DNA of 64,000 nt from an uncultured Alphaproteobacteria bacterium (GTDB lineage: Bacteria > Pseudomonadota > Alphaproteobacteria > HIMB59 > GCA-002718135), in NCBI GenBank assembly GCA_902628835.1, contig CACOPD010000003.1, positions 22,053 to 86,052 on the forward strand, given 5' to 3'. The position numbers were made by a program, and so were the translations under genes. This document shows, piece after piece, positions 5,007 to 61,121 of this stretch. Under the pieces are notes generated by a model. It was not told the origin of the DNA. It saw nothing but the letters and a program-made list of their open reading frames with translations, and made no database searches. Within the stretch, counting starts at the first letter, position 1, and every line of letters begins with the position of its first letter.

Positions 5007-5486
5007 ATGCAGATAGGCAAATACAAATACGAATTTGATTTCTTTAGTTGGATTAAAAAAACTGAACTAGTTGAACTAGACAGTGTTAATCCAGAAGACG
5101 ACCCCGTTCGTCCAGAATTGGATAATGATTTTAGGACGGCTAAGGGAAGAAAAATTTTTGGTCTTAAATATAAAGACGATATTGAAGGTGTAGCTTGCTT
5201 TGCATTTACAAAAGAAATACCAGCAACCATAAAAGAAATGGATCTGATGAGTGTAGAAGAAGATGAAGCGTCAATTCCAATCGCCTACACATTATGGTCT
5301 TTCAAAAAAGGTGCTGGTAAAAAAATTATGAAAGAGCTTCAAAAATATATTAAATCAAAAAAACAATTTGAAAGCATTATAACTATCTCACCTTTAACTC
5401 CAGTAGCTACTCATTATCATATTAGGAATGGTGCAAGATTAATAAAAATTAATCCAACAACTCAAAATTTCGAATATAAAATTTAA
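5007..5486 (+). CDS. Hypothetical protein, possibly with a GNAT-like acetyltransferase fold.
   Basis: 159-aa ORF. The segment IAYTLWSFKKGAGKKIMKELQKYI resembles GNAT motif A (Q/RxxGxG/A followed by a helix). I recognise no other family features. Confidence 0.45.
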   Translation: MQIGKYKYEFDFFSWIKKTELVELDSVNPEDDPVRPELDNDFRTAKGRKIFGLKYKDDIEGVACFAFTKEIPATIKEMDLMSVEEDEASIPIAYTLWSFKKGAGKKIMKELQKYIKSKKQFESIITISPLTPVATHYHIRNGARLIKINPTTQNFEYKI

Positions 5487-5495
5487 GTTCAAGGG

Positions 5496-5517
5496 GTTCA
5501 AAAATTATTATTTGAAC
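5496..5517 (+). terminator. Weak AT-rich hairpin downstream of the 159-aa ORF; possible terminator.
   Basis: GTTCAAA (5496-5502), 8 nt, then TTTGAAC (5511-5517), followed by TATTTATCTT. The stem is short and the tail imperfect. Confidence 0.3.
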
Positions 5518-5554
5518 TATTTATCTTACAAATCAAAAATAAATATTGTTAGAA

Positions 5555-6661
5555 ATGACCTACCAAATAAATACTAATTATTACGTTACTTTTGATGATA
5601 TTCTGCTTTCACCAGCGTATTCTGAGATTAAACCTAAAGACGTTGATACATCTATTACACTAGGAAAGTTAAAATTACATATTCCCATACTCTCCTCTGC
5701 TATGGACACAGTGACAGAGAATAAAATGGCTATCAATCTAGCACTTAATGGTGGTCTTGGTGTTATTCACCGCAATATGCCTATTGATAAACAAGCAAGT
5801 GAAGTTAAAAAAGTTCATGACTTTAAAGTTAACATCAAAAAATTTCAGAATGCTGTAATTAATTCTAATAAACAGATTGCAGTTGGAGCTGCAATCGGTG
5901 TTGAAAATAATGCCTATTTAAGATTACTAGAATTGTTAAAAGTCGGTGTTGATATAGTCTTTATTGATGTTGCTCATGCACATACAAAAACAACTTTACA
6001 GTTTATTGAAAAAGCAAAAAAAGTTTTAAAGAAAACTCCTCTTATTGTTGGCAACATTGCAACAAAAAAAGCTGCATCAGATTTAATTAGCGCAGGTGTT
6101 GATGCGATTAAAGTAGGTATTGGGCCTGGATCAATTTGCACAACAAGGGTTGTAACAGGTGTTGGTATTCCTCAGCTTTCAGCTGTGATGGATACATTTC
6201 AAATAGCAAAAAAATTTAAAATTCCTGTGATTGCCGATGGTGGAATTAAAACCTCAGGTGATATTGCAAAAGCTATAGCAGGTGGTGCAAGTGCTTGCAT
6301 GATAGGTTCTTTATTTGCTGGAACAGAAGAATCACCAGGAAAATTATTAACGATCAAAGGTAAAAAATATAAATCATATAGAGGTATGGGTTCTGTAGGG
6401 GCAATGCAAAAAGGGTCTTTTGATCGATACTCTCAGGAAGAAACAAAGAATGCAAAAAAATTAGTGGCAGAAGGTGTTGAGGGGATGGTTCCTTATAAAG
6501 GTAAAATAGAAGATGTGGCTTATCAACTTGTTGGTGGTTTAAAATCTTCTATGGGTTACACAGGACATAAAACAATTAAAAAAATGCAGGGCAATTGTGA
6601 ATTTGTATTTATATCTAAAGCAGGAGCCCGCGAAAGTAATGTCCATGATGTCATTATGTAA
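5555..6661 (+). CDS. guaB: IMP dehydrogenase catalytic core lacking the CBS/Bateman subdomain.
   Basis: Contains FDDILL…[17 protein letters not shown], the catalytic loop [42 protein letters not shown] and an IMPDH-type flap [10 protein letters not shown]…[14 protein letters not shown]. Only about 25 aa ([26 protein letters not shown]) separate HRNM…EVKKVHD from the VGAA strand, where the CBS pair normally sits. The track starts at TTG 5546. ATG 5555 (MTYQ…) is the more likely start. Confidence 0.85.
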
Positions 6662-40059: not shown

Positions 40060-41058
40060 TTAGATTAAACTCTTTATTTTTTCTATTAGCTCTGTATTGA
40101 TATGTCTCGGACCTTTATCTTCTCTATTAGTATGTCTTCTTTGACCAGGTAACCGCACTCCGTCTAAGGATGTCATTTGTTCAAAAAATTTTTCAGCATG
40201 TTCATTCCAATTTTTTCCTGCAATAAGCTCAGGGGATAAAGCCATAATAAACTCACCTCCCCGTGCTGGACCTCCATCGTTATTATCCTCTACTTTTGCT
40301 TCAAAACTAAAAAGATCTCCAACTAGACCAGCAGCTAGTAATTCAATCATCATAGCTATAGCAGAACCTTTATAATCACCAAATGTCAAAAGCACTCCAC
40401 CATTTGCTATTTGATTTGGATCATCAGTTTTTTCACCATCTTTATTTAGTCCTGTTCCAAATGGTACTTTGTGACCATCTCTAGCTGCAACCTGAACTTC
40501 ACCCATTGCCATCGTAGAAGTTGCCATGTCATAAACAACAGGAGTATTATTTTTTCTAGGCCATGCAAATGAAATTGGATTGGTTCCAAATAATGGTTTT
40601 TTTGCACCAGCCGGAGCTACACTTGGCTTATATGCTGTACAAGCGATACCGATTAAATTATTTTCAGCAAGAGCTTCAGTCTCATGCCACAAAGCAGCAA
40701 AGTGGTGAGTATTAGCAATTGTTAATACGCCAACTCCATGTTTATTTGAAGTTTTAATTAATTCAGGTAAACCAACTTTTATTCCTACTGGAGCAAAGCC
40801 ATAATCTCCATCAACACGAATAGTATTTTGTGTGAGATAATTACTAGTAGGCCGAGAAACAGCATTTACTTTTTTACTCTTTAAAGAAGCTACATATCCT
40901 GGAATTCTAAATAAACCATGAGAAACACTTCCATCTCTCTCAGCGTGAGTTACAGTTGTTGCAACACAATCAGCATTTAGATGATCACAACCATTTTTTG
41001 TAAGTGCTTCAAAAGCTAATTCATATATTTTTTCTAATTCTAAAGGAGTTGTATTCAT
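40060..41058 (-). CDS. Ldh2-family (type 2 malate/L-lactate dehydrogenase) NAD(P)H oxidoreductase.
   Basis: Contains HAERDGSVSHGLFR, NTHHF, PLFGTNPISFAWP, DMATS and GDYKGSAIAMMIELLAG. The family includes ureidoglycolate dehydrogenase and Pyr2C/Pip2C reductase. Confidence 0.85.
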   Translation of the reverse strand: MNTTPLELEKIYELAFEALTKNGCDHLNADCVATTVTHAERDGSVSHGLFRIPGYVASLKSKKVNAVSRPTSNYLTQNTIRVDGDYGFAPVGIKVGLPELIKTSNKHGVGVLTIANTHHFAALWHETEALAENNLIGIACTAYKPSVAPAGAKKPLFGTNPISFAWPRKNNTPVVYDMATSTMAMGEVQVAARDGHKVPFGTGLNKDGEKTDDPNQIANGGVLLTFGDYKGSAIAMMIELLAAGLVGDLFSFEAKVEDNNDGGPARGGEFIMALSPELIAGKNWNEHAEKFFEQMTSLDGVRLPGQRRHTNREDKGPRHINTELIEKIKSLI

Positions 41059-41091
41059 TTACTTTTCTTAAATATTTAATATTATTAGTGA

Positions 41092-42462
41092 ATGGATAGA
41101 GGATTATTAGACAATTTGAAAGACCTTTTACAAGAAAGAATTTCATTTTCAGAAAGTGTTCGAAATAATCACGCCAAAGGTGAAGATGCCTATGATCCTA
41201 TATTACCGAGAGCTGTTTTATTTCCAAAAAATAATGAGGAGCTCTCAAAAATACTAAAAATTTGTAACGAATTCAAGGTACCTGTAACTGCTTATGGAAC
41301 TGGGACATCACTGGAAGGTCATGTAGTTGGCAACGAAGAAGGTTTTACAATTTCAATGGAAAATTTTAATAAAATAATTTCAATCAATGAACAAGATTTT
41401 GACTGTCGGGTTCAAGCTAATGTATCACGTGAACAACTTAATGAAGTACTTAAAGATAAAGGGGTATTCTTTCCTATTGATCCTGGTGCAAATGCATCTT
41501 TAGGTGGTATGACTGCTTGTTCTGCATCAGGAACAATGGCTGTAAGATACGGAACAATGAGAACAACTGTTTTAGGTCTAACTGTAGTTTTAGCGAATGG
41601 TAATATAATAAAAACTGGCACAAGAGCAAAAAAAACTTCTGCAGGATATAATTTGACCAATCTTTTTGTTGGTTCTGAAGGTACACTTGGAATAATCACT
41701 GAGATTCATCTTAGATTATCACCAATACCAGAAAGTATAATGAGCGCTGTATGTCAATTTCCAGATCTTGACTCAGCTGTATTAACTGCACAAGAAATTA
41801 TCCAATATGGCGTACCAATTGCAAGAGTGGAATTGTTAAATAAAGATCAGATGGATATCAGTATAAAGTATTCAAAACTAGAGAATTTAGACAGTTTACC
41901 GACACTTTTTTATGAATTTCATGGAAGTGAAATTGCAAATAAAGAATCAATTGAAATAGTTGAGGAGATCTCTAAAAACAACCATGGCAGTGAATTTAAA
42001 TGGGCAGTAAACACAGAGGAAAGAAATAAAATTTGGAAAGCAAGACACAATGTTTATTATTCAGTTAAAGCAGAAGGAGATAATGTAAGGGTTTACGCTA
42101 CTGATGTTTGTGTACCTATTTCAAATATTGTTGAGTGTATTAAATTTGCGGAAAATGAACTTCAGGGCACTGGGCTAAAAGCACCTATGGTTGGCCACGT
42201 AGGTGATGGAAATTTTCATGTAACTATTGTCTATGATCCTAACAAAGATAATGAATATCAATATATAAGAGAGTTTAGCGATAAATTAATTGATAAAGCA
42301 CTTAAAATGGACGGGACAATAACAGGAGAACATGGAATTGGTCTTCAGAAAAAGGAGTATTTATTAAGACAACACCCAGATAATATTCCTTTAATGAAAT
42401 TAATTAAGAAAAGTTTTGATCCAAATAATATTTTAAACCCAGGTAAAATATTTGATATTTGA
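41092..42462 (+). CDS. FAD-linked oxidase (D-lactate dehydrogenase / glycolate oxidase GlcD-like).
   Basis: FAD_binding_4-type N-terminal half (PVTAYGTGTSLEGH, GVFFPIDPG, GGM…SG, FVGSEGTLGIITE). The C-terminal half has GDGNFH and GTITGEHGIG. Confidence 0.85.
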   Translation: MDRGLLDNLKDLLQERISFSESVRNNHAKGEDAYDPILPRAVLFPKNNEELSKILKICNEFKVPVTAYGTGTSLEGHVVGNEEGFTISMENFNKIISINEQDFDCRVQANVSREQLNEVLKDKGVFFPIDPGANASLGGMTACSASGTMAVRYGTMRTTVLGLTVVLANGNIIKTGTRAKKTSAGYNLTNLFVGSEGTLGIITEIHLRLSPIPESIMSAVCQFPDLDSAVLTAQEIIQYGVPIARVELLNKDQMDISIKYSKLENLDSLPTLFYEFHGSEIANKESIEIVEEISKNNHGSEFKWAVNTEERNKIWKARHNVYYSVKAEGDNVRVYATDVCVPISNIVECIKFAENELQGTGLKAPMVGHVGDGNFHVTIVYDPNKDNEYQYIREFSDKLIDKALKMDGTITGEHGIGLQKKEYLLRQHPDNIPLMKLIKKSFDPNNILNPGKIFDI

Positions 42463-42503
42463 AGTTTAAAAATCAGTCTATATTTATGTAAATCATAATA
42501 TAA

Positions 42504-43547
42504 TTATTTTAAGTTTTTTATATCTTCATTATATGCAAATACAGCTGGACTTCCTCCAGTATAAACAAAAATTACGTTATCTCCTTTTTTAATAATACCC
42601 TTTTGAACATAATCTATTAGAGCTGCAAAACCCTTAGAAGTGTATACAGGATCAAGAATTATAGATTCCTTTTTTGCTAAAAGCTTCATAGCATCAATTC
42701 CTTCTTTTGTAGTAGCTCCATATTTTTCACCTACATAAGTATTGTCATGATTAATCATTTCATGACTAAATTTCATATTTATATCAAGTAGCTTAGCTCC
42801 TTCATTACAAATGCGAGCAATATCCTTTTTGATATCCATTTCCCAATAAACAGGAGAGATACCTTGGATCCGAGTTGGCCAATTTAATATTTTTGCCCCT
42901 AACTCACAGCCAGCTTGTGTCATATTAGCAGCCGTAACAAATAAGTGATCTGCCATAAAATTTTGTTCTCTCATTTGTAAATCAATTTCAGCCATAGCAT
43001 TTGTATAACTAATTCCAGCAAGAGTTGTATCCTCTTTTCCAAATCCACCGTATATAAGTAGAGGTTTTCGACCCTGTTTTATTAGTTCTTTATATTTTCT
43101 ATCTAGATGCTTTGGTATTTCTTCTAAATTCTCTCCATCAACTACATCAACGTTAGCTCCTAAAATATTATATAATAAAAAATTGCCTTGCATTAACTTA
43201 CCTTTTATTCCGTGCATTAATACTAAGTAACTATCTAAATTTAATTTATTTGCTGCTGCTACAGCTTGACGACAAAAATTTGATTGAGAAGAAGCTCCAG
43301 TTAAAATACAATCATACTCTCCAGATAGAGTTTTAGCCATTATAAATTCTAGATGTCTTGTTTTGTTCCCTCCAAAAGCAAGGGCTGTGCAATCATCTCT
43401 TTTTATATATAGATTTATATTTAGCTCTTTAGAAATATTAGGGGCATATTCAAGAACAGTTGGTAGTTGAGCTAATTGAATTCTTGGAATTTTATTTATT
43501 CTTGAAACTAATTCTTTAGCTGATAACGGATTAAAATTAATATTCAT
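42504..43547 (-). CDS. PLP-dependent enzyme of the ACC deaminase / D-cysteine desulfhydrase family.
   Basis: Contains KRDDCTALAFGGNKTRHLEF (the GGNKxRKLE-type Lys motif) and a YTGG C-terminal motif. The tryptophan-synthase-beta-like fold is inferred. Confidence 0.8.
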   Translation of the reverse strand: MNINFNPLSAKELVSRINKIPRIQLAQLPTVLEYAPNISKELNINLYIKRDDCTALAFGGNKTRHLEFIMAKTLSGEYDCILTGASSQSNFCRQAVAAANKLNLDSYLVLMHGIKGKLMQGNFLLYNILGANVDVVDGENLEEIPKHLDRKYKELIKQGRKPLLIYGGFGKEDTTLAGISYTNAMAEIDLQMREQNFMADHLFVTAANMTQAGCELGAKILNWPTRIQGISPVYWEMDIKKDIARICNEGAKLLDINMKFSHEMINHDNTYVGEKYGATTKEGIDAMKLLAKKESIILDPVYTSKGFAALIDYVQKGIIKKGDNVIFVYTGGSPAVFAYNEDIKNLK

Positions 43548-43577: not shown

Positions 43578-45311
43578 TTAATGACTATGTCTTTTAACTT
43601 CTGATCCTCTTTTACCAATTAGAAAGTCTAAATCTGCACCTTTATCAGCTTGCATTACGTGATCAACATACATTTTTTGATAACCCCCAGTAATTTCAGG
43701 TAAGACTGGAGAATAATTTTCTAAACGATTTTTAATAGTGTAATCGTCAACTTTAAGGTTCATCATACCTTGATTAACATCAATTTCAATTTGATCTCCA
43801 TTTTGAACAGCAGCTAAAGGCCCCTTTACCGCTGCTTCAGGTGCAGTATGTAGAATTACAGTACCATAAGCTGTACCACTCATCCTCGCATCTGAAATCC
43901 TAATCATATCTCTAACTCCTTTTTTTAGAATCTTTTGAGGCAGCCTCATGTTACCAACTTCTGCCATACCTGGATAACCTCTAGGACCACAATTTTTTAA
44001 AACTAAAATACAAGTCTCATCCACATCAAGTTTTGGATCATCTATTTTATCGTGAAATTCTTCAACACTTTCAAAAACCACTGCTCTTCCCGTATGCTTC
44101 ATTAATTCTGGTGATGCAGCAGAAGGTTTAATTATTGCACCATTAGGTGCAATATTTCCCCAAAGAATTTTTATTCCTCCATTTTCAGTTAAAGGTTTTT
44201 CAAATTCTTTAATAACTTCGTTATTCCAACATTTAGCATCTTTATTATTCTCTCCAATAGTTTTCCCATTTACTGTCATTTCATTTTCATCTAGTAATTT
44301 TTTTTCAAGCAATCTTTTGATAACTACTGGTACCCCTCCAGCGTAGTAAAAATCTTCCATTAAATATTTTCCAGATGGTTGTAAATTAACTAATGTAGGA
44401 ATACCTTCTCCACACTTATTCCAATCATCTAATTCTAGGTCAATTTCTAATCGTCCTGCAATAGCAGCTAAATGAATTACTGCATTGGTTGATCCTCCTA
44501 TAGCTCCATTGACTTTTATTGCATTTTCAAAAGATTTTTTTGTTACAATTTTTGACATTGTCATATTTTCTTTGACCATTTCAACAATTCTTTTTCCAGA
44601 CATATGAGATAAAGCATATCGTCTAGAGTCAACAGCAGGTATTGCTGCATTGCCTGGTAATGACATTCCAAGTGCTTCAACCATTGATCCCATTGTAGAT
44701 GCAGTGCCCATTGTCATACAATTACCTTTTGATCTGCTCATTGATATTTCAGCATTTATAAAATCTTCCTCTGTTATTATTCCTGCATTTAAATCAGCAT
44801 CAAGTTTCCAAACACCTGTGCCCGAACCAATAATTTCACCTTGATGATGACCATTTAACATTGGTCCTCCAGAAATACCTATAGTCGGCAAGTCTACACT
44901 AGCAGCGCCCATCATCAGTGAAGGAGTTGTTTTATCACATCCCATTAAAAGTACGACTCCATCTATTGGGTTTCCTCTTATAGCTTCTTCAACGTCCATA
45001 CTTGCTAAGTTTCTAAATAACATTGCGGTTGGTCTAAGATTTGATTCACTTGCAGAAAAAACAGGGAACTCTAAAGGAAAACCACCAGCTTCATACACGC
45101 CTTTTTTTACTGACTCTGCTATCTCTCTAAAATGTCCATTACAAGGAGTTAATTCAGACCAAGTATTACAAATTCCAATAACTGGACGACCATCAAATAA
45201 ATGGTTTGGGTGTCCTTGATTTCTCATCCACCCTCTATGTATGAAAGTATCTCTTCTATGTAATTTAGAGTTGTACCAATCCGATGATCTAAATTTGTTT
45301 TTTTTATTCAC
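43578..45311 (-). CDS. IlvD/Edd-family dehydratase of the pentonate (xylonate/arabinonate) dehydratase type.
   Basis: Contains RS.DWY…HRGWMRNQG, GRPVIGICNTWSELTPCNGH, MGCDKTTP, CMTMGTASTM and GGSTNAVIHL. The N-terminal pattern matches XylD/AraC-type enzymes rather than ILV IlvD. Confidence 0.85.
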   Translation of the reverse strand: MNKKNKFRSSDWYNSKLHRRDTFIHRGWMRNQGHPNHLFDGRPVIGICNTWSELTPCNGHFREIAESVKKGVYEAGGFPLEFPVFSASESNLRPTAMLFRNLASMDVEEAIRGNPIDGVVLLMGCDKTTPSLMMGAASVDLPTIGISGGPMLNGHHQGEIIGSGTGVWKLDADLNAGIITEEDFINAEISMSRSKGNCMTMGTASTMGSMVEALGMSLPGNAAIPAVDSRRYALSHMSGKRIVEMVKENMTMSKIVTKKSFENAIKVNGAIGGSTNAVIHLAAIAGRLEIDLELDDWNKCGEGIPTLVNLQPSGKYLMEDFYYAGGVPVVIKRLLEKKLLDENEMTVNGKTIGENNKDAKCWNNEVIKEFEKPLTENGGIKILWGNIAPNGAIIKPSAASPELMKHTGRAVVFESVEEFHDKIDDPKLDVDETCILVLKNCGPRGYPGMAEVGNMRLPQKILKKGVRDMIRISDARMSGTAYGTVILHTAPEAAVKGPLAAVQNGDQIEIDVNQGMMNLKVDDYTIKNRLENYSPVLPEITGGYQKMYVDHVMQADKGADLDFLIGKRGSEVKRHSH

Positions 45312-45343: not shown

Positions 45344-46219
45344 TCAAATTTTAAATTTATTATCTTCTAAACCAGGAGTATTTAGATTTAATGCAAATAA
45401 ACCACCGTCATAGTTATGTTTACCTTCATTGAACGCAGTAGTTATATAGAGAGTTTTTAGATCACTTCCTCCAAATACGCAATTTGTAACATTTTCTACA
45501 GGCAATTCATAAATCTGATCAATATTCCCATTGGGATCAATTCTTACCACACATGACCCACCCCAACGACAGTTCCATATATATCCCTCACTATCAATCG
45601 TAGAGCCATCTGGTAATCCACGTTCAAAATCAAAAAAAACTTTTTTATCTGATAAAGAGCCATCATCTAAATTAAAATTATATTCAAGCAATGAACCGTC
45701 TGTTGTATCAGCGAAATAAAATTTTAAATTGTCAGGACTCCAAATAAATGTGTTAGGAATACCAAGGTTTTTTTCTACAATATTTAATTGATTATCTGAT
45801 AAGCAATATAAACTTCCAGATTTAGTATTTAAAGGTTTAGGACTGCCATCTGAATTGAAATTGTTTTGCATTGTACCAAACCACAATCTACCTTTAGCAT
45901 CAGAACCTCCATCGTTAGATCTATTTGTAGAAATATCATTTTCTACATTTATTAATCTTTCATATTTTTTTGTTTGAAGATTAAATTTGTTAACACCATT
46001 GTTTGACACTAAAGCAATTTCATTGTTTGAAATTATAGATGATGCTGTAACAAATTCTGGTAGATCATAAGTTTCTAATTTTTCAGTTTGTAGGTTTAAT
46101 CTGAATAATACCGATTTTGGTTTAATATCAACCCAAAATAGGCTTCCATCAAATGAAGACCAAGTTATTCCTTCTCCTAAACTATTTTTAACATCCAGGA
46201 ATAATTCAACATTACTCAT
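45344..46219 (-). CDS. SMP-30/gluconolactonase/LRE-family lactonase.
   Basis: Contains LGEGITW, LFWVDI, NDGGSDAKGRLWFGTM, PNTFIWSPD, PDGSTIDSEGYIWN and LYITTA, the six-blade propeller lactonase signatures. Confidence 0.85.
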   Translation of the reverse strand: MSNVELFLDVKNSLGEGITWSSFDGSLFWVDIKPKSVLFRLNLQTEKLETYDLPEFVTASSIISNNEIALVSNNGVNKFNLQTKKYERLINVENDISTNRSNDGGSDAKGRLWFGTMQNNFNSDGSPKPLNTKSGSLYCLSDNQLNIVEKNLGIPNTFIWSPDNLKFYFADTTDGSLLEYNFNLDDGSLSDKKVFFDFERGLPDGSTIDSEGYIWNCRWGGSCVVRIDPNGNIDQIYELPVENVTNCVFGGSDLKTLYITTAFNEGKHNYDGGLFALNLNTPGLEDNKFKI

Positions 46220-47271: not shown

Positions 47272-48105
47272 CTAGCCTCTTTTTTCTAAATTATTTAAAA
47301 ATATATCTAATTCATTTTCTTTAATCTCTACAATATTTTTTTTCTCAGGAAAAGTGCCAGAATGTACATCGTCATAAAACTCTTGGAAAGCTGTCTCTCT
47401 TTCTTTTTGAAGTCTAGCGAATTCTTGTTGAAAATCCCTATATTTTTTTGCATGACGCGGTATTTTACCTTTTGTGGTTCCTAATATGTCGCATCCGAAA
47501 ACATACTCTACATCACAACCAGGTCCACTTCCCATTGACATAACTGTTGGTTGTACTTTTTTTGAAATAACCTCTGCGATTTTGTAGGGCACACACTCCA
47601 TCTCTATAGCAACTCCTCCGGCATCTTGAATTTTTAAACACTGGTCATACACCCACATAGCTTCATCGGCAGTTTTACCAACTGCTACAAATCCACCAGT
47701 CCATGTTCTTTTTGGAGGAACTAAACCAACATGTCCCAGACAAGGGATACCCTCTCTATATAATTCTTTTATGAGATCAAAACGCGTATTACAATAAAGC
47801 ATATCAAAACCGTGTTCTAATATCTTAAAAGAAAATTTTTTTGCCTCATCAATTGTAGGGATAAAACTATCAGGGGCACCACAGTGCATAAATGCAGTTG
47901 GGGCGGCTTCTCTCATTTTTACTAATTGATCAAAATTTGGATGACCATCTTCATTTTTATACTTGCCTGCTAAACCAGTAGCAAGCATTTCAAAACCAAC
48001 TTTATCAGCTGCTAATGCCTCCTCTTCATTTTTAATTAATATACAAACTAATTTTTTTTTACTTTTAAAGTTTTGCAAATCTTTAACCGTTATTTTTTTT
48101 ATCAT
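47272..48105 (-). CDS. PanB-like (ketopantoate hydroxymethyltransferase family) protein, divergent, copy 1.
   Basis: Clear similarity to the PanB C-terminal half: GIPCLGHVGLVPPKRTWTGGFVAVGKT, AGGVAIEMECVP and SMGSGPGCDVEYVF…GKIPRHAKKY. The canonical N-terminal GDSLGM / ADLPF / KIEGG segments are replaced by ATGLAGK / MHCGAP / MLYCNT. Confidence 0.7.
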   Translation of the reverse strand: MIKKITVKDLQNFKSKKKLVCILIKNEEEALAADKVGFEMLATGLAGKYKNEDGHPNFDQLVKMREAAPTAFMHCGAPDSFIPTIDEAKKFSFKILEHGFDMLYCNTRFDLIKELYREGIPCLGHVGLVPPKRTWTGGFVAVGKTADEAMWVYDQCLKIQDAGGVAIEMECVPYKIAEVISKKVQPTVMSMGSGPGCDVEYVFGCDILGTTKGKIPRHAKKYRDFQQEFARLQKERETAFQEFYDDVHSGTFPEKKNIVEIKENELDIFLNNLEKRG

Positions 48106-48107
48106 AA

Positions 48108-49121
48108 TTAATTTGTACCTGGTACCTCAACATCCAAATAATAGTTTTTATCTTTTGCTTGTCTGAAAATAGCAGGAATAATTTCTTTATAAGCGTTTAT
48201 TACTCCTTTTTTTGGAAGTGGCATTTGTTCTTTTACTACTTGATGAAAAGCTTTGAGATTATGACAAGGGATTTTAGGAAAAATATGATGCTCAATATGA
48301 TATTCCATACTTGAATATAAAAAACTAAAAAAAGGATTCATAATTACTGTTCTTGTACTTTTCCTATGATCTTTAATATTATCTGCTAATCCAGCATGTT
48401 GGGTCATTCCACATATCATAAGAATTGTATTTCCATAAAATGGAGGAAGAATTAACATAATTATTGGCAGCCAAGTTTTAAAAAGGATTGAAGCAGCAAT
48501 TATAATTAACCAAAAACCAACATACAGCCTTGAACTATTTATGATTTTTATAATTTCTTTTTCAGGTACTGTGATTTTTACAACAGGTGTGATTATTCCT
48601 AATGAATGTTTTATTATTTCAAAATGTGTAAAATGTCTTATTTTTTGAATATTAATTAAAGGACCTAGTGGTAAAAAATTTAAAAGAAATCTTATAGGTT
48701 CAGTGGGTTTAGGACTATTGTTTTCATAATCATATACTTCCTCATGAGTAAAAATTGTGTAGGTGTGGTGATGAAAATGACTCCATTTCCATCTGACTGC
48801 TTCAAAACCTCCTAATAATGAAGTGATGTGGTAGAAAAATTTATTTAAACCTCTTGTCTTAAAATATGTTTCATGGTTAGTTTCATGCTGAATACTGATA
48901 ATTTTACAATAAAAAATGTTTCCATAAAGAAGAAGCGCAGGTATTGACCACAATGTTCCCCAAGTAAATATGCATAAATATCCACTTATTAATAACATAA
49001 TGATGAAAATGGATATATCTACGATACCTTTAAAGTCTGATCGTTTAGATAATTTTTTTAGAATTTTTTTATCTATATTTGGCTTATACCAAGTTTTTAA
49101 ATCAACCTCGCCTGCGTACAT
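48108..49121 (-). CDS. Membrane fatty-acid-desaturase-family di-iron oxygenase, copy 1.
   Basis: Has TM helices and the three His boxes HETNHE, HFHHHTYT and HIEHHIFP. It is a paralog of 51559..52545. Confidence 0.8.
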   Translation of the reverse strand: MYAGEVDLKTWYKPNIDKKILKKLSKRSDFKGIVDISIFIIMLLISGYLCIFTWGTLWSIPALLLYGNIFYCKIISIQHETNHETYFKTRGLNKFFYHITSLLGGFEAVRWKWSHFHHHTYTIFTHEEVYDYENNSPKPTEPIRFLLNFLPLGPLINIQKIRHFTHFEIIKHSLGIITPVVKITVPEKEIIKIINSSRLYVGFWLIIIAASILFKTWLPIIMLILPPFYGNTILMICGMTQHAGLADNIKDHRKSTRTVIMNPFFSFLYSSMEYHIEHHIFPKIPCHNLKAFHQVVKEQMPLPKKGVINAYKEIIPAIFRQAKDKNYYLDVEVPGTN

Positions 49122-49124
49122 TAA

Positions 49125-49952
49125 TTAAAAATTTTCTGAAAGCTTTAAAAATTTATCAAATTCACTTTGATCAATATTAACAGTAATTTTTGGATCATCA
49201 AATTTTTTATTTACTGTGTCGTCATGAAACTCTTTAAATGCATTTATTCTTTCAGATTGAAGTTTTTCAAATTCTTTTTTAAAATCTCTGTAAATACGAG
49301 CATGTCTTGGTATTTTCCCTTGTGTATATCCAAGCACATCATTTGCAAATAAATATTGTCCATCACATCCTGAACCACTACCCATTGAAAGGGTCATGAT
49401 ATCAACTTTTTTTGTTATTACTTCAGCAACTTTTGGAGGAACTACTTCAAGCTCAACACCGACTGCACCGGCTTCTTGTAATTTCAAAGTATGTTCTAAG
49501 ATTCTAATAGCTTTATCTGCTGTTTTACCTTGAGCGACAAAACCACCGATCCATGTTGCATTTCCAGGAACTAATCCGACATGACTATTAATTGGGACAT
49601 ATTCATCTCTTAATGCACGTATCCATTTATAACTCCAATTGCCTCCGTAAATAACATCTGCGCCAATATCTAAATATTTATGAGATAACTTCATTGCCTC
49701 GTATTCAGAAGCAACTCTTACAGCACCTCCTGACTGCATAAAGCAAGTTGGTGCAGCTTCACGAATTCTTTTTAATTCATCAAAAGAATTATAAATTCCA
49801 AATTGTGGAGCATCATGAGAAGTGCATATCATATCTATACCTGCTTCTTCTGCTGCAGCAGCTTCGTCTGCATTATGGACAAACATGACGCTTAGTTGTC
49901 TTTTACCTTTACATTGTAAATAGTCATAGACCGTTAGTTTTTTTCTACTCAT
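49125..49952 (-). CDS. PanB-like protein, divergent, copy 2.
   Basis: Contains NSHVGLVPGNATWIGGFVAQGKT, AGAVGVELEVVP and SMGSGSGCDGQYLF…GKIPRHARIY. CTSHDAP replaces GDSLGM. It is a paralog of 47272..48105. Confidence 0.7.
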   Translation of the reverse strand: MSRKKLTVYDYLQCKGKRQLSVMFVHNADEAAAAEEAGIDMICTSHDAPQFGIYNSFDELKRIREAAPTCFMQSGGAVRVASEYEAMKLSHKYLDIGADVIYGGNWSYKWIRALRDEYVPINSHVGLVPGNATWIGGFVAQGKTADKAIRILEHTLKLQEAGAVGVELEVVPPKVAEVITKKVDIMTLSMGSGSGCDGQYLFANDVLGYTQGKIPRHARIYRDFKKEFEKLQSERINAFKEFHDDTVNKKFDDPKITVNIDQSEFDKFLKLSENF

Positions 49953-52545: not shown

Positions 52546-52723
52546 GACTTAAAATATCACTTTTTGGAAAAGGATTAAATATAAAATTAAAAATTTAATA
52601 TCAAATATGTCGCATTTTCTCTTATTTTGGCTCATGTTTAAATTTAAAATTTTAGTAAATAAATGTATTTGTATTATTCTTTTTTATACTTATAAATTAA
52701 AGCATAAATTATTTGGAGGAATT

Positions 52724-53704
52724 ATGAAAAAAATCTTTGCCGTCATTGCTCTATTTTTTGCTTTTGTATCTACTTCAGCAGTAGCAAAAAATGATTACAG
52801 CTGTGATAAGAAATTTATATTTTTCCCAGGTGGTCCTGAAGGTGGTCCATTTGGAACTATCGTTTACAATGGTGCAGTAGCTGCTGCTGAACACACTGGT
52901 TGCGATGTAGATTACTACTGGTCACAATGGAACTCAGAAATAATGATTAAGCAGTTTAAAGAAGCTGTTGCCTTACAACCTGATGGAATTGCAATCTATG
53001 GTTTTCCAGGTGATGCTGCTATGAGACCAATTATTCAAGAAGCTAGAGAAATGGGAATAGTAATTACTACTATGAACACACCTCTTCCTGATCTTGAAGC
53101 AGAATATAAAACTGAAGGTTTTGGTTATGCTGGAGCAGATCTATTTGATGCTGGATTTAATCTAGGTAAAAAAGCTGTTGAGGTTTGTGGTTTACAAGCT
53201 GGAGACAAAGCTTTTATCTGGGGTCTAGCAAGTATGCCAAATAGAGGAGAAAGAACAAAAGGTGCAATAGCTGGTGTTGAAGCAGCTGGTGTCGAAGTTG
53301 TTTATCAAGAAATTCCTGATAACGTAAACTCAGATGCATCTCAGGGAACTCCTATGTACGTTGCTACTTACAGTGCAAATCCTGATATAAAAATGGCTAT
53401 TACAGATCATGGAGGATTAACTGCAAGTTTACCAACATACATGAAAGCTGCAGGTCATGGTACTGAAGAAGTATGTGGTGCTGGATTTGATTTATCAGCT
53501 CCAATTGTTGACGGAATTAATTCTGGATACATTGATGTAGTAATTGATCAGCAACCATTTATCCAAGGATATATGCCAATTGTTCAGTTATTCCTGAGCA
53601 CTAAATACGGAATGGCTGGATTAGCAATGGATACTGGTGCTGCATTTGTTACAGCTGATAACGTAGGTGCTGTTGCTCCATTAGCTGCAGTACAAATCAG
53701 ATAA
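52724..53704 (+). CDS. Periplasmic sugar-binding protein (PBP type I, CUT2-type ABC transporter).
   Basis: GGAGGA 4 nt upstream of ATG 52724 and signal peptide MKKIFAVIALFFAFVSTSAVA. The track's start at 52607 adds a non-credible 39-aa extension. Composition is rich in A/G, like the other abundant binding proteins. Confidence 0.85.
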   Translation: MKKIFAVIALFFAFVSTSAVAKNDYSCDKKFIFFPGGPEGGPFGTIVYNGAVAAAEHTGCDVDYYWSQWNSEIMIKQFKEAVALQPDGIAIYGFPGDAAMRPIIQEAREMGIVITTMNTPLPDLEAEYKTEGFGYAGADLFDAGFNLGKKAVEVCGLQAGDKAFIWGLASMPNRGERTKGAIAGVEAAGVEVVYQEIPDNVNSDASQGTPMYVATYSANPDIKMAITDHGGLTASLPTYMKAAGHGTEEVCGAGFDLSAPIVDGINSGYIDVVIDQQPFIQGYMPIVQLFLSTKYGMAGLAMDTGAAFVTADNVGAVAPLAAVQIR

Positions 53705-53718
53705 ATAAAATTATATAA

Positions 53719-53748
53719 CCTGCCTTATTTTAAGGCAGGTTTTTTTTT
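53719..53748 (+). terminator. Intrinsic terminator/attenuator between the binding-protein gene and the ATPase gene.
   Basis: CCTGCCTTA-TTT-TAAGGCAGG followed by T9. The ATPase ATG (53749) directly follows the T-run. Confidence 0.75.
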
Positions 53749-54516
53749 ATGGCAGAAGAACTCTTAAAATTAGAAAATATTTATAAAAACTTTGGAAACG
53801 TAAAAGTTTTAAAAGATGTAAACATCAAAATAAATAAAGGTGAAGTGGTAGCTTTAATTGGTGATAACGGAGCTGGAAAATCAACACTTATAAAAGTCAT
53901 AACGGGAGTCCATACGCCAAACTCAGGAAAAGTTTTTTTCAAACAAGAAGAAGTTCAAATAAAATCAGTTGCTCAATCAAGAAAAATGGGGATTGAAGCC
54001 GTATATCAAGAAAGAGCATTATGTGATCAACAAGAATTATACAGAAATATTTTTGCTGGAAGAGAAATTACAAATTCATTTGGTTTTTTAGATATAAAAA
54101 AACAAAGAAAAGAAGCTGAAAAGATTTTACGTGACTATATAGGGTTTACTTCAAAAGCCATAACAGTTGACTCTCAAGTAATGGGACTTTCTGGTGGAGA
54201 AAAACAGGGTGTAGCTTTTGGTAGATCATTATATTTTAATTCTGATTTAATCGTATTAGATGAACCAACTATGGGTTTATCGATTCAAGAAACTGAAAAA
54301 GTTCTTAATTTTGTAAAAGGTTTAAAAAATGAAAATAAATCTGCAATTTTTATCGATCATAATATAATACACGTTTACGGAGCTGCAGATAGATTTATTA
54401 TCTTAGATAGAGGTGAAGTAGTTGGTGAATTTAATAAAGAAGATATTTCTAGAGAAGAACTTGTTCAAAAAATGATTCAACTCCATGAATCAGGAAAAAT
54501 AAAAGTGGAAGATTAA
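53749..54516 (+). CDS. ABC transporter ATP-binding protein with a single nucleotide-binding domain (FrcA-like).
   Basis: Contains GDNGAGKST, LSGGEKQGVA and VLDEPTMGL. At 255 aa it is half the size of typical CUT2 ATPases. Confidence 0.9.
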   Translation: MAEELLKLENIYKNFGNVKVLKDVNIKINKGEVVALIGDNGAGKSTLIKVITGVHTPNSGKVFFKQEEVQIKSVAQSRKMGIEAVYQERALCDQQELYRNIFAGREITNSFGFLDIKKQRKEAEKILRDYIGFTSKAITVDSQVMGLSGGEKQGVAFGRSLYFNSDLIVLDEPTMGLSIQETEKVLNFVKGLKNENKSAIFIDHNIIHVYGAADRFIILDRGEVVGEFNKEDISREELVQKMIQLHESGKIKVED

Positions 54517-55494
54517 ATGAATAATTTAATAAATAGTTATTTTGTAAAAACTCACAAACTTGAAATTAGTATTACAATAATTGCTTTAGTACTTTTCTTA
54601 ATTTACTTTTTGGGTGCACCACATGTATTTACAAGATTTCCTATTTATAGAGCTTTTATGCAATCAATGCCTTTTTTTGGAATTATTGCTATATCAGCAA
54701 CATTTGTTGTTACACTTGGTGAAATTGATTTATCATTTCCATCTATAGTTGGAATTACTTCTCTCATATTTGGAATCATAATGACATCAACTGATGGTAA
54801 TTTTTTTATAGCATTTATCTTAGCAACTTCACTTGGAATGTTTGCTGGATTAGTAAATGGATTACTTGTTACTAAAATTGGGATACCTTCAATAGTTGCC
54901 ACTATAGGTACATTGTTTTTTTGGCGTGGATTGGTTAATGTAATTTCTCAAGGTAGTGGTATTGCGATAGTTGATGTAGCAGATGGAACCTGGCATCATA
55001 TGATTTTTGTTGAAAAACTATTTGGAAAAATTCCAATGCAATTTATTTGGTTTATTGTATTAACTGGATTGATGCAATGGGTTTATCGATACCATAAATT
55101 TGGAAATCACATTCACTTTGTAGGTGATAACAAAGCAAGTGCTCAAATGATGGGAATTAATGTTGATAATGTAAAAATAATCGCTTTTGTTCAATTAGGC
55201 TTTTTCTCTGCTTTAGCAGGAATTTTTACAATGTATGAAATGTTATATTTCTGGCCTACACAAGGTGAAGGTTTAATGTTAACCACACTAGCAGCTGTCT
55301 TTGTTGGCGGTACTTCAGTCTTTGGTGGCAAGGGTACTATTTTTGGGACATTTATTGGAGTGTTAATAATTGGCTCTTTAGAATCAGGAATAGTTGCTCT
55401 AGGCTTATCGGGTTTTTATGTAAAATTTATTAATGGACTCATGATTACAGTTGCTGTTACAGTTTACGCTCTAATACAAAGAAGAAAAAATTAA
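54517..55494 (+). CDS. ABC transporter permease (RbsC/FrcC type).
   Basis: Multi-pass membrane protein with GEIDLSFPSIVG and GGKGTIFGT. Confidence 0.9.
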   Translation: MNNLINSYFVKTHKLEISITIIALVLFLIYFLGAPHVFTRFPIYRAFMQSMPFFGIIAISATFVVTLGEIDLSFPSIVGITSLIFGIIMTSTDGNFFIAFILATSLGMFAGLVNGLLVTKIGIPSIVATIGTLFFWRGLVNVISQGSGIAIVDVADGTWHHMIFVEKLFGKIPMQFIWFIVLTGLMQWVYRYHKFGNHIHFVGDNKASAQMMGINVDNVKIIAFVQLGFFSALAGIFTMYEMLYFWPTQGEGLMLTTLAAVFVGGTSVFGGKGTIFGTFIGVLIIGSLESGIVALGLSGFYVKFINGLMITVAVTVYALIQRRKN

Positions 55495-56228
55495 TAAGTA
55501 GCTCGACCTCCACTCAAATCAAAAGTTGATCCTGTCGTATAAGAATTTTCTTCAGAAGACATCCATGCAACTAAGGAAGCTAATTCTTCAACCAACACAA
55601 ATCTATTTCTAGGAATTTTTGATAACATATAATCAATATGTTCTTGAGTAATTTGATCGAAAATACGCGTCTTAGCAGGTGCAGGGGTAACACAATTCAC
55701 TGCAATGTTATTTTCAGCTAATTCTTTTCCTAATGATTTAGTAAGCGCAATAACTCCTGCTTTTGCTGCACTATAAGGCATTGCATTAGGATTGCCTTCC
55801 TTTCCTGCTATTGAGGAAATATTAACAATGCGTCCATAATTATGCTTCATAAAATGAGGGACAACAGTTTTACAACAAAAAAATACTCCACTAAGATCTA
55901 TGTCTATAACTTTTTGCCACTCCTCAAGAGGATAATCCCATGTCTTAAAGTTTGGTCCAGCTATTCCTGCATTATTTACTAGAATATCAATTTTATTTTC
56001 GTATGTAAGACTTTTGGCGAATGCATTCTTCACACTTTTATAGTTTGAAACATCAACTTCAATTTTTTGAGTATTTTTTAAATCAACCTTGTTCAGATAC
56101 TCTACATCTTTATCCCATATTAAAACTTTAGCACCTGAGTCTATAAATCTTTTCGTGATTGCTAAACCAAAACCTTGTGCTCCTCCAGTAACGATAGCTA
56201 CTCTATTTTCTAAATTAATTTTGTTCAT
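55491..56228 (-). CDS. Short-chain dehydrogenase/reductase (FabG-like).
   Basis: Contains IVTGGAQGFG, NNAG and YSAAKAG. Confidence 0.9.
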   Translation of the reverse strand: MNKINLENRVAIVTGGAQGFGLAITKRFIDSGAKVLIWDKDVEYLNKVDLKNTQKIEVDVSNYKSVKNAFAKSLTYENKIDILVNNAGIAGPNFKTWDYPLEEWQKVIDIDLSGVFFCCKTVVPHFMKHNYGRIVNISSIAGKEGNPNAMPYSAAKAGVIALTKSLGKELAENNIAVNCVTPAPAKTRIFDQITQEHIDYMLSKIPRNRFVLVEELASLVAWMSSEENSYTTGSTFDLSGGRATY

Positions 56229-59747: not shown

Positions 59748-61034
59748 TTAATCACGAATAGAATAAGCGATTACACCGACTTCAGCTTTGTCAGTTCCTA
59801 GTTTTTCTGCCTCTTCACTAATGCGAAGACCCATTGTATTTTTAATTATATAAATAACTATGTATGATGTAATAAATACAAATAAACATATAGATACTAC
59901 GCCAAGTAATTGAGTAGCGTAAGAAGCATCAGGATTTGTAAATGGAACAACTAAAGTGCCCCATATACCTGCAAACATGTGAACAGGAATTGCTCCAACT
60001 ACATCATCAAGTTTTAGTGAATTTAAAAGCTGAGTTCCATAATACATAATTACTCCACCGATAGCTCCAATAAAAATTGCTAGAAGTGGTGACGGCATTA
60101 AAGGTTCTGCTGTAATAGAAACTAATCCTGCAAGAGCTCCATTGAGCATCATAACAATATCTGTTTTTCCACCAATTAATCTAGTTATTGCTGCACCTGC
60201 CATACATCCTCCACATGCGGCTAGCTGTGTGTTCATAAATATTTGTGACATGGCTGTTGCATCCTCATATGACCCTAATGCTAATTGTGATCCTCCATTA
60301 AAACCATACCAACCCATCCATAAAATGAATGTTCCAAGTGTTACGAGAGGTATCGAAGAAGGAGCAAATGGTGCCATGTTAGCAGGTTCACCTGACTCAG
60401 TAAATCTTCCAAGTCTAGGGCCTAATAATATAACACCGGCTAAAGCAGCAGATCCTCCACATGCGTGAACTAATGTAGATCCAGCAAAATCAGAAAAGCC
60501 AATAGCATCAAGCCAACCGCCTCCCCATTCCCATCCCATTTGTATAGGATAAATAAAACCTCCAAGTATTGCAGCAAAAACAAAAAATGGCCAAATTTTT
60601 ATCCTTTCAGCAACAGCACCGGAAACAATTGAAACAGTAGCACAAACGAATAATGCTTGAAAAAACCAATCAGAAGCATCTGAATATCCAGTTTCTATTG
60701 AAGTATTATCAGTCCATAAAGAAGGGAAGCCTAAATAACCTCCCTCTGGAACTCCGTATCCTAAATTGTAACCAAACAAATAAAACACTATGGAAACAAT
60801 TGCAAATTTGCCAATATTTTTTGCAGCAATTGTTGAAACACTTCTAGTTGTAACAAGACCAGATTCTAAAAATAAAAAACCAGCAGCCATCCACATTACT
60901 AAAAAACCGCAGACTAAAAATGAAAATGTATTTAAAATATATGCAACCTCTGCATCTACTTCTGCATTTGCATATGAACTAAAAAATAAAGTTGGAATTA
61001 TTATTCCTAATAAATAAAGAGATTTTCTAAACAT
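59748..61034 (-). CDS. amtB: Ammonium transporter (Amt family).
   Basis: Signal peptide MFRKSLYLLGIIIPTLFFSSYANA. Contains AAGFLFLESG, DFAGSTLVHACGG, HMFAGIWGT and 11 TM helices. GGAGG lies 4 nt upstream of ATG 61034. The track's GTG 61070 extension (MGWCCENYNGGL) is unlikely. Confidence 0.9.
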   Translation of the reverse strand: MFRKSLYLLGIIIPTLFFSSYANAEVDAEVAYILNTFSFLVCGFLVMWMAAGFLFLESGLVTTRSVSTIAAKNIGKFAIVSIVFYLFGYNLGYGVPEGGYLGFPSLWTDNTSIETGYSDASDWFFQALFVCATVSIVSGAVAERIKIWPFFVFAAILGGFIYPIQMGWEWGGGWLDAIGFSDFAGSTLVHACGGSAALAGVILLGPRLGRFTESGEPANMAPFAPSSIPLVTLGTFILWMGWYGFNGGSQLALGSYEDATAMSQIFMNTQLAACGGCMAGAAITRLIGGKTDIVMMLNGALAGLVSITAEPLMPSPLLAIFIGAIGGVIMYYGTQLLNSLKLDDVVGAIPVHMFAGIWGTLVVPFTNPDASYATQLLGVVSICLFVFITSYIVIYIIKNTMGLRISEEAEKLGTDKAEVGVIAYSIRD

Positions 61035-61121
61035 CAATCCTCCATTATAATTTTCACAACACCAGCCCACCTCGAGCGATGTTTAATTCATGCGTAGCTA
61101 TGGAAATTATAATATAAGATC

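Follow-up and report, generated by a model that had tools for sequence, protein, structure and literature searches.

A stretch of 64,000 nucleotides from contig CACOPD010000003.1 (hereafter the window) carries on its minus strand two genes, A and B, whose products are related to ketopantoate hydroxymethyltransferase (PanB), each lying directly 5′ of a gene for a His-box membrane oxygenase. Judged from their sequences, A and B are not PanB, and the Mg2+/2-oxoacid site has been lost throughout the family to which they belong. We propose, with a probability of about 0.5, that this region belongs to a SAR11 operon for breaking down methylated sugars, running from 52545 to approximately 43578 on the minus strand, in which the PanB-like proteins would pass a one-carbon unit to tetrahydrofolate (THF). 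Relatives close to identical to the two proteins carry a Pelagibacteraceae annotation, and the G+C content is approximately 30% across the window; on the strength of these relatives we assign the window to a SAR11 genome.

Active-site residues of the PanB-like proteins

The A protein (49952-49125, minus strand; 275 amino acids) and the B protein (48105-47272, minus strand; 277 amino acids) share 46% identity, and both score above the gathering threshold of 28.7 for the Pfam family PF02548 (Pantoate_transf), with 130 bits (E 1.6e-37) for A and 115 bits (E 4.3e-33) for B. This was the only family found in a Pfam scan of the two proteins, apart from a sub-threshold NanE match in B, and the scan found no GCV_T domain. 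However, the more stringent NCBIfam equivalog models for panB, TIGR00222 (cut-off 207.55 bits) and NF001452 (cut-off 272 bits), give 104.3 and 117.6 bits for A and 89.6 and 101.4 bits for B, all under the cut-offs; a member of the family from S. fredii scores 105.7 and 125.4 bits. An exact-sequence look-up of B returned no record.

The first-pass annotation of this DNA had described A and B as divergent PanB paralogs lacking the canonical metal and substrate motifs, and every substituted motif and retained C-terminal block that it listed was reproduced both in the A1 alignment and in an alignment of 391 full-length relatives with E. coli PanB. The E. coli motif GDSLGM corresponds to CTSHDAP in A and ATGLAGK in B, ADLPF to MQSGGA and MHCGAP, and KIEGG to VIYGGN and MLYCNT, respectively, and the C-terminal blocks GHVGLVP, ExExVP, GSGxGCD and IPRHAK are retained. 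At the positions of E. coli D45, S46, D84, K112, E114, H136, V179 and E181 the family reads x-x-G-x-Y-H-E-E, a pattern that a strict count finds in 346 of the 391 relatives; the remainder are mostly truncated sequences or minor variants, and the A1 alignment concurs. Asp84 has thus become Gly, the Glu114/Lys112 region is replaced by a Tyr with a two-residue deletion, and the GDS motif by a variable, shortened loop; the TAYD motif is gone and the loop after strand 2 is deleted. In E. coli PanB, we take Asp45 and Asp84 to be direct ligands of the Mg2+, Glu114 to be a water-mediated one, and Ser46 and Lys112 to contact the substrate. The possibility had been raised that the catalytic set might prove to be retained, in which case A and B would be ordinary PanB duplicates, but Asp45, Asp84, Lys112 and Glu114 are not conserved in the alignments. 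Mg2+ lies in the active site of the canonical enzyme, which is strictly dependent on a divalent metal (PMC13488298).

On the other hand, a set of residues is common to true PanB and the family, namely His136, Glu181, Asp209, Asp217, Lys231 and the glycine-rich loops. His136 and Glu181, the proposed acid/base residues of PanB, correspond to His124 and Glu169 in A and are invariant in the family. Seven further invariant residues are specific to the family (Tyr102, Trp134, Glu167, Tyr200, Phe202, Arg216 and His217, in the numbering of A). In an AlphaFold2 model of A, which is a (beta/alpha)8 barrel with a predicted local distance difference test score (pLDDT) of 90, the invariant residues Y102, H124, E167, E169, D197, D205, R216 and H217 gather at the C-terminal ends of the barrel strands, and among the conserved residues His124, Glu167, Glu169, Asp197 and His217 might constitute a new metal site. 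This pattern of loss and gain suggests a remodelled, functional active site rather than that of a decaying pseudoenzyme, and we predict that the members of the family are enzymes.

We also considered whether the proteins might fall into another subfamily of the isocitrate lyase (ICL)/phosphoenolpyruvate (PEP) mutase superfamily. When the model of A was used in a Foldseek search, ranks 1-28 were all occupied by PanB structures, with template modelling (TM) scores of 0.62-0.70 and identities of 21-26% for the best, and other members of the superfamily appeared only from rank 29 (E ~1e-9, TM ~0.5, 10-16% identity). A sequence search of the PDB likewise matched only PanB structures, over the C-terminal two-thirds of the protein. 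The nearest structures are therefore still those of PanB, and the Foldseek and PDB sequence searches together rule out PrpB, ICL, PEP mutase and the petal death protein.

The family is large, comprising at E <1e-20 over 7,799 clusters when grouped at 90% identity, and its members carry the names panB or 3-methyl-2-oxobutanoate hydroxymethyltransferase together with the Gene Ontology term for pantothenate biosynthesis. Thousands of panB-annotated genes in SAR11, rhizobia and other bacteria almost certainly make no ketopantoate.

Linkage to di-iron oxygenases

The first-pass annotation had also described two PanB-like genes that are each followed at once by an oxygenase gene, and these coordinates and the gaps of 2-3 nt were reproduced: 3 nt separate A from the desaturase-family gene downstream of it, 2 nt separate the latter from B, and 3 nt separate B from the hydroxylase-family gene. 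The gene following A encodes oxygenase 2 (49121-48108, minus strand; 337 amino acids), a MocD-like protein of the FA_desaturase family (PF00487, 107 bits) with the His boxes HETNH, HFHHH and HIEHH, which is 34% identical to a MocD-like protein of S. fredii and 48% identical to oxygenase 1 of the same operon. The gene following B encodes oxygenase 3 (47268-46264, minus strand; 334 amino acids) of the FA_hydroxylase/sterol-desaturase family (PF04116, 72 bits), with intact His boxes and 46% identity to the FA_hydroxylase of a locus from another genome (L007). A search by sequence for solved homologues of these two oxygenases found none.

These two pairs are embedded in a larger unit. The operon begins with the gene for oxygenase 1 (52545-51559, minus strand; 328 amino acids), a second MocD-like protein of the FA_desaturase family (PF00487, 127 bits; 41% identity to the S. 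fredii protein). It is followed on the same strand by genes for a MocF-like ferredoxin-NAD(P)+ reductase (51554-50325; 409 amino acids; PF07992 and PF14759, with HcaD and AndAa-like NCBIfam matches), which is 32% identical to its S. fredii counterpart, and for a MocE-like Rieske [2Fe-2S] ferredoxin (50286-49969; 105 amino acids). The latter scores 136.0 bits against the TIGR02377 model MocE_fam_FeS (cut-off 136.15) and is 59% identical to the MocE-family ferredoxin of S. fredii, which itself reaches 187.5 bits. The coupling of PanB-like and oxygenase genes that had been taken to define a two-gene unit is thus real, but the unit extends to a third oxygenase, a Rieske ferredoxin and a reductase (52545-49969), within an operon for sugar uptake and oxidation.

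Gene order could be judged in 39 marine metagenome contigs that were long enough for the purpose. The order A, desaturase 2, B, hydroxylase was found in 32 of these 39 SAR11 contigs, making it the dominant SAR11 form, and it is unchanged even where the identity of B drops to 65%. In the other seven, as well as in four long SAR11 contigs, the hydroxylase is present without B. A neighbour-joining tree places A and B in sister clades within the PanB-like family, and because of this placement we regard their separation as an old duplication internal to SAR11; the data point to B as a SAR11-specific paralog that arose by duplication of the PanB-like gene alone. Accordingly, the idea of a duplicated, tightly coupled enzyme pair survives only in part: the coupling to oxygenases recurs across taxa, but the oxygenases downstream of A and of B belong to different Pfam families, so that the PanB-like gene was duplicated and its partner was not. 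In one SAR11 contig (L093), a gene for an HxlR-family regulator (5340-5708, minus strand) separates the ferredoxin reductase gene of this cluster from the Rieske gene. The formaldehyde sensor of B. subtilis is an HxlR regulator, and the insertion hints weakly at a relevance of formaldehyde.

Examples of the coupling come from SAR11, Rhizobiaceae, Phyllobacteriaceae, Rhodobacterales and betaproteobacteria. We quantified it in 80 loci from GTDB species-representative genomes of Rhizobiaceae, Phyllobacteriaceae and some betaproteobacteria, gathered with a rhizobial-type alignment. The PanB-like gene has as neighbours a MocD-like FA_desaturase gene in 75 of the 80 loci, a Rieske ferredoxin gene in 73, a ferredoxin reductase gene in 61 and a LacI regulator gene in 57, and genes for AP_endonuc_2 barrels (MocC/IolE-like), Peripla_BP_4 binding proteins and GFO/IDH/MocA dehydrogenases are also common nearby. 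On pSymB of S. meliloti 1021, the PanB-like gene lies directly 3′ of SM_b20818-20820 (annotated mocD, mocE and mocF), and the resulting unit of LacI, mocDEF and PanB-like genes is isolated between unrelated capsule genes. In Marivivens the module adjoins iolG, iolC and iolD. The partner at L007 is an FA_hydroxylase-type oxygenase, clustered with Rieske, ferredoxin reductase and PanB-like genes, and three other loci (L008, L096 and L097) show more permutations of the module. These findings support well a functional unit composed of an oxygenase, a Rieske ferredoxin, a reductase and a PanB-like protein.

Several other arrangements were noted. At L096, FA_desaturase, Rieske, PanB-like and XylA2-like genes stand in one row; in Pseudomonas syringae strains from woody hosts, mocDEF lies immediately upstream of the alternative xylose isomerase gene xylA2 (PMC5132102), and the module may matter in plant-associated pseudomonads too. 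In a Caldilineaceae metagenome-assembled genome (MAG) of the Chloroflexota (L095, 5601-13037), the PanB-like gene is found amid GFO_IDH_MocA, AP_endonuc_2 and PhyH (Fe/2-oxoglutarate dioxygenase family) genes with no FA_desaturase gene, and an oxygenase of another class may be its partner there. The PanB-like gene of L074 (7974-8807) has no di-iron oxygenase nearby; next to it are a gene of the TetR type and two that resemble FAD oxidoreductase genes. A search for Rosetta-stone fusions found that the longer members are canonical PanB proteins with extensions, or chimeras. One protein of 542 amino acids (P0122) was examined as a natural tandem fusion of PanB-like proteins and rejected, as its halves are 99% identical and it is most likely an assembly artefact.

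Proposed role and rival explanations

The link to folate comes from purU, which directly adjoins the PanB-like gene in 18 of the 80 loci and whose product is recognised by TIGR00655 (327 bits, cut-off 286). The two genes are in tandem in rhizobia and Phyllobacterium and divergent in several betaproteobacterial MAGs, and at one locus (L054, 7042-8786) the PanB-like gene is divergently paired with purU only, with no di-iron oxygenase nearby. PurU recycles 10-formyl-THF, and its presence suggests that the module charges folate with one-carbon units; operons of folate-capturing demethylases often contain purU or folD. We assign the loading step to the PanB-like protein because it is the sole product of the module with folate-enzyme ancestry. 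Furthermore, the S. meliloti operon encodes only what we take to be the demethylation step, which is therefore the step in which its PanB-like protein would have to act. The adjacency of purU points to oxidative demethylation and one-carbon transfer to folate, and not to the 2-oxoacid chemistry for which an assay of A and B had been suggested.

In the pathway that we propose, the ferredoxin reductase would take electrons from NAD(P)H and hand them, by way of the MocE-like Rieske ferredoxin, to the three membrane di-iron oxygenases, and these oxygenases (two of the MocD type and one of the FA_hydroxylase family) would hydroxylate methyl, probably O-methyl, groups to give hemiacetals. A and B, as soluble TIM barrels of ketopantoate hydroxymethyltransferase descent, would have kept the one-carbon half-site and discarded the Mg2+/2-oxoacid (enolate) half, and would hand THF the newly formed hydroxymethyl group, or formaldehyde, and so produce 5,10-methylene-THF; the cofactor of the family is presumably the same as that of PanB, 5,10-CH2-THF/THF. 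Free formaldehyde would thereby be avoided and the folate-linked one-carbon oxidation of SAR11 fed. The demethylated sugar would be converted to a lactone, which the SMP-30/gluconolactonase-family lactonase (45344-46219, minus strand; 291 amino acids; PF08450, 243 bits), kept in SAR11 clusters, would hydrolyse, and the product would be dehydrated by an IlvD/Edd-family sugar-acid dehydratase (43578-45311, minus strand; 577 amino acids). The latter is L-arabinonate dehydratase-like (NF004784, 908 bits) and matches the Rhizobium L-arabinonate dehydratase structures 5J83 and 9EVV at E 1e-247. The substrate class, the use of THF, the capture of formaldehyde and any physical contact with the oxygenases are steps that we infer. 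A narrower and more tentative formulation is that the family is a dedicated THF-dependent enzyme for capturing formaldehyde or hydroxymethyl groups ('THF-Fae'), which would have evolved from PanB through deletion of the 2-oxoacid/Mg2+ half-site and would act next to membrane di-iron O-demethylases, possibly docked to them.

A number of observations weigh against this role. That A and B would bind THF is argued from their ancestry and from the adjacency of purU, and to our knowledge no structure has located the THF site of canonical PanB, so that its place in the retained half is a presumption. Only 22% of the loci have purU next to the PanB-like gene, and these are phylogenetically related; its adjacency would also be expected if formaldehyde and THF reacted spontaneously, and no folate gene was found in the SAR11 operon. 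In addition, on a Burkholderia cenocepacia plasmid (NZ_CP091015.1, locus L098, 8016-10638), a mocDEF-like trio lies beside iolG and the genes for a TIM barrel and a xylose isomerase, and neither a PanB-like gene nor space for one was found at this locus, from which it follows that the partner is common but not obligatory. Together with the absence of B from some SAR11 that keep the hydroxylase, this suggests that the PanB-like protein is dispensable for oxygenase activity, and it argues against the suggested soluble/membrane complex being an obligate 1:1 assembly.

The rival to which we give most weight, although we consider it unlikely, is that the PanB-like protein is a THF-independent enzyme, either an isomerase or epimerase acting on a sugar or cyclitol, or a hemiacetal lyase that speeds the release of alcohol and formaldehyde. 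The newly conserved Tyr102, Glu167, Trp134, Arg216 and His217 have no PanB counterpart and make a new substrate plausible, sugar and inositol genes lie next door, and most loci are without purU. However, the S. meliloti 1021 operon, with its LacI, mocDEF and PanB-like genes, ties the protein to the demethylation step, the isomerase roles are already filled by AP_endonuc_2 or XylA2-type barrels, and both the purU adjacency and the oxygenase-free pair of purU and PanB-like genes at L054 would be left unexplained.

Another rival is a reversal of PanB chemistry, in which the oxygenase would hydroxylate a C-methyl group and the PanB-like enzyme would remove the hydroxymethyl branch by retro-aldol transfer to THF, twice over, as in the two successive rounds of two-step chemistry that had been suggested. 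The hydroxymethyl transfer of canonical PanB is reversible, one of the two PanB-like genes stands ahead of each oxygenase gene, and the purU linkage would fit. We nevertheless regard this C-demethylation as improbable, since a retro-aldol reaction of the PanB type requires a Mg2+-bound 2-oxoacid enolate, for which all ligands have been lost, while the homologous rhizobial modules are moc-like, MocDEF being assigned to an O-methyl step, and most organisms have a single PanB-like gene per module.

It is equally improbable, in our estimate, that A and B are non-catalytic subunits, that is, pseudoenzymes that scaffold or stabilise the membrane oxygenase or dock the ferredoxin. The gene gaps of 2-3 nt suggest co-translation and the ancestral catalytic metal site is gone, as this explanation would have it, yet approximately 14 polar or glycine positions on the catalytic face are invariant at 30-45% identity, which is atypical for a scaffold. 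Moreover, the PanB-like protein partners oxygenases of two unrelated families, and the oxygenase modules of some genomes do without it. Finally, although the PF02548 gathering cut-off is exceeded and the database name is 3-methyl-2-oxobutanoate hydroxymethyltransferase, it is very improbable that A and B are ordinary panB duplicates making ketopantoate for pantothenate, given that the metal and substrate residues are absent family-wide, that the TIGR00222 and NF001452 scores are about half of the cut-offs or less, and that the genes stand in a catabolic operon with no panC, panD or panE nearby. When A, B and E. coli PanB were used as tblastn queries against the 64-kb window, neither a third PanB-like gene nor a canonical panB came to light.

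Operon setting, comparison with known systems and implications

Elsewhere the module is found in clusters for sugar or inositol catabolism, and in SAR11 the transporter, lactonase and dehydratase genes likewise indicate a sugar context. Divergent from the gene for oxygenase 1 is a CUT2-type sugar ATP-binding cassette (ABC) transporter (52725-55494, plus strand), made up of a binding protein (52725-53704; PF13407), an ATPase (53749-54516) and a permease (54517-55494), and the same three genes, of equal lengths, are present in the SAR11 loci L001-L004. The top PDB matches for its binding protein are structures of sugar-binding proteins. The open reading frame of the binding protein opens at 52607 on the plus strand, but translation from the ATG at 52725, which follows a GGAGG motif, would begin with a typical signal peptide (MKKIFAVIALFF...); for this reason 52725 is preferred and is probably the true start, which leaves a divergent intergenic region of approximately 180 nt. 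A short-chain dehydrogenase (55491-56228, minus strand; 245 amino acids; PF00106 and PF13561) is a candidate sugar 1-dehydrogenase that presumably belongs to the operon, and a short-chain dehydrogenase gene is found 3′ of the IlvD gene in other SAR11 contigs.

The 3′ end of the operon is variable. In the window, 40060-43547 is occupied by genes for a CuyA-like pyridoxal phosphate (PLP) enzyme, an FAD oxidase resembling GlcD and a dehydrogenase of the Ldh_2 family, whereas other SAR11 contigs (L001-L004 and L091-L094) have a DHDPS-family gene or a short-chain dehydrogenase gene 3′ of the dehydratase instead. The PLP enzyme (42504-43547, minus strand; 347 amino acids) scores 268 bits against NF052482, under the cut-off of 450, and its role in the pathway is uncertain. 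No GFO_IDH_MocA, AP_endonuc_2 or regulator genes were found among the cluster and the scanned flanking genes (32448-56228), whereas the rhizobial and Marivivens loci do have genes of these kinds. Elsewhere in the window, two tandem glutamine riboswitch aptamers (RF01739; 61120-61173 and 61186-61240, minus strand; 59.6 and 63.9 bits) lie upstream of an ammonium-transporter-like gene (59748-61070).

Among known systems, PanB itself (EC 2.1.2.11; 1M3U, 1OY0, 3VAV, 3EZ4 and 1O66) shares the (beta/alpha)8 fold with the PanB-like proteins and is their best structural match (TM ~0.7), but it acts in pantothenate biosynthesis, whereas A and B stand in a catabolic, oxygenase-linked setting. The closest parallel for the operon is the MocDEF 'ferredoxin oxygenase' system of Sinorhizobium and Rhizobium, which is assigned to the demethylation (O-methyl) step in the catabolism of the rhizopine 3-O-methyl-scyllo-inosamine. 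Both systems contain an FA_desaturase-family oxygenase, a Rieske ferredoxin (MocE-like in SAR11, with a score at the family cut-off) and a reductase, and the rhizobial PanB-like loci hold MocA-, MocB- and MocC-type neighbours. The SAR11 operon differs in having three oxygenases of two families on one electron chain; mocA, mocC and mocR were not found in it, and its product would enter a lactonase/dehydratase route for sugar acids rather than the inositol pathway. A model for MocDEF in rhizopine catabolism is attributed to Bahar et al. 1998, as cited in PMC10107442. The mocDEF literature that we consulted describes three genes and does not mention a PanB-like partner, our full-text literature search found no paper that links a PanB-like protein to these oxygenases, and such a partner is thus described nowhere in the literature searched.

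Other parallels are functional. The GcvT-fold domains of sarcosine/dimethylglycine oxidase, DmdA and LigM resemble our proposal in that a methyl-derived one-carbon unit is passed to THF, but there is no homology, and in our proposal a separate protein of the PanB fold would accept the unit and a membrane di-iron enzyme would be the oxidant, so that the analogy is one of function only. P450-based demethylase systems for 6-O-methyl-D-galactose were reportedly described in marine Bacteroidota by Reisky et al. in 2018. They too combine a monooxygenase, a ferredoxin and a reductase for the oxidative O-demethylation of algal methyl sugars in a marine heterotroph; in contrast, theirs is a soluble haem P450, formaldehyde is released free, and there is no PanB-like partner. 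The reaction that we propose, in which formaldehyde condenses with a one-carbon carrier of the pterin type, is reminiscent of Fae, which depends on tetrahydromethanopterin and so differs in cofactor as well as in fold. We know of no THF equivalent of Fae that has been described. He et al. mentioned a Fae variant that accepts THF as no more than a possibility, and the condensation that formaldehyde and THF undergo spontaneously is too slow for growth (PMC7073904). If our proposal is correct, the family would supply a natural enzyme for this condensation, which would be directly useful in synthetic methylotrophy.

The mis-annotation of these genes as panB can distort predictions of vitamin-B5 auxotrophy, which are under way for Pelagibacter (preprint 10.64898/2026.04.03.716430). 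With the PanB-like protein, the MocDEF-type system also gains a fourth component that is conserved; this system is used as a rhizopine-signalling tool and is present in plant-associated bacteria. For SAR11, the most abundant heterotroph in the ocean, the operon points to methylated sugars as probable substrates that would supply both one-carbon units and energy. If the proposed role is true, methylated sugars and cyclitols would feed their methyl groups directly into the one-carbon pool of folate, and methyl sugars would represent a previously unrecognised one-carbon energy source in SAR11.

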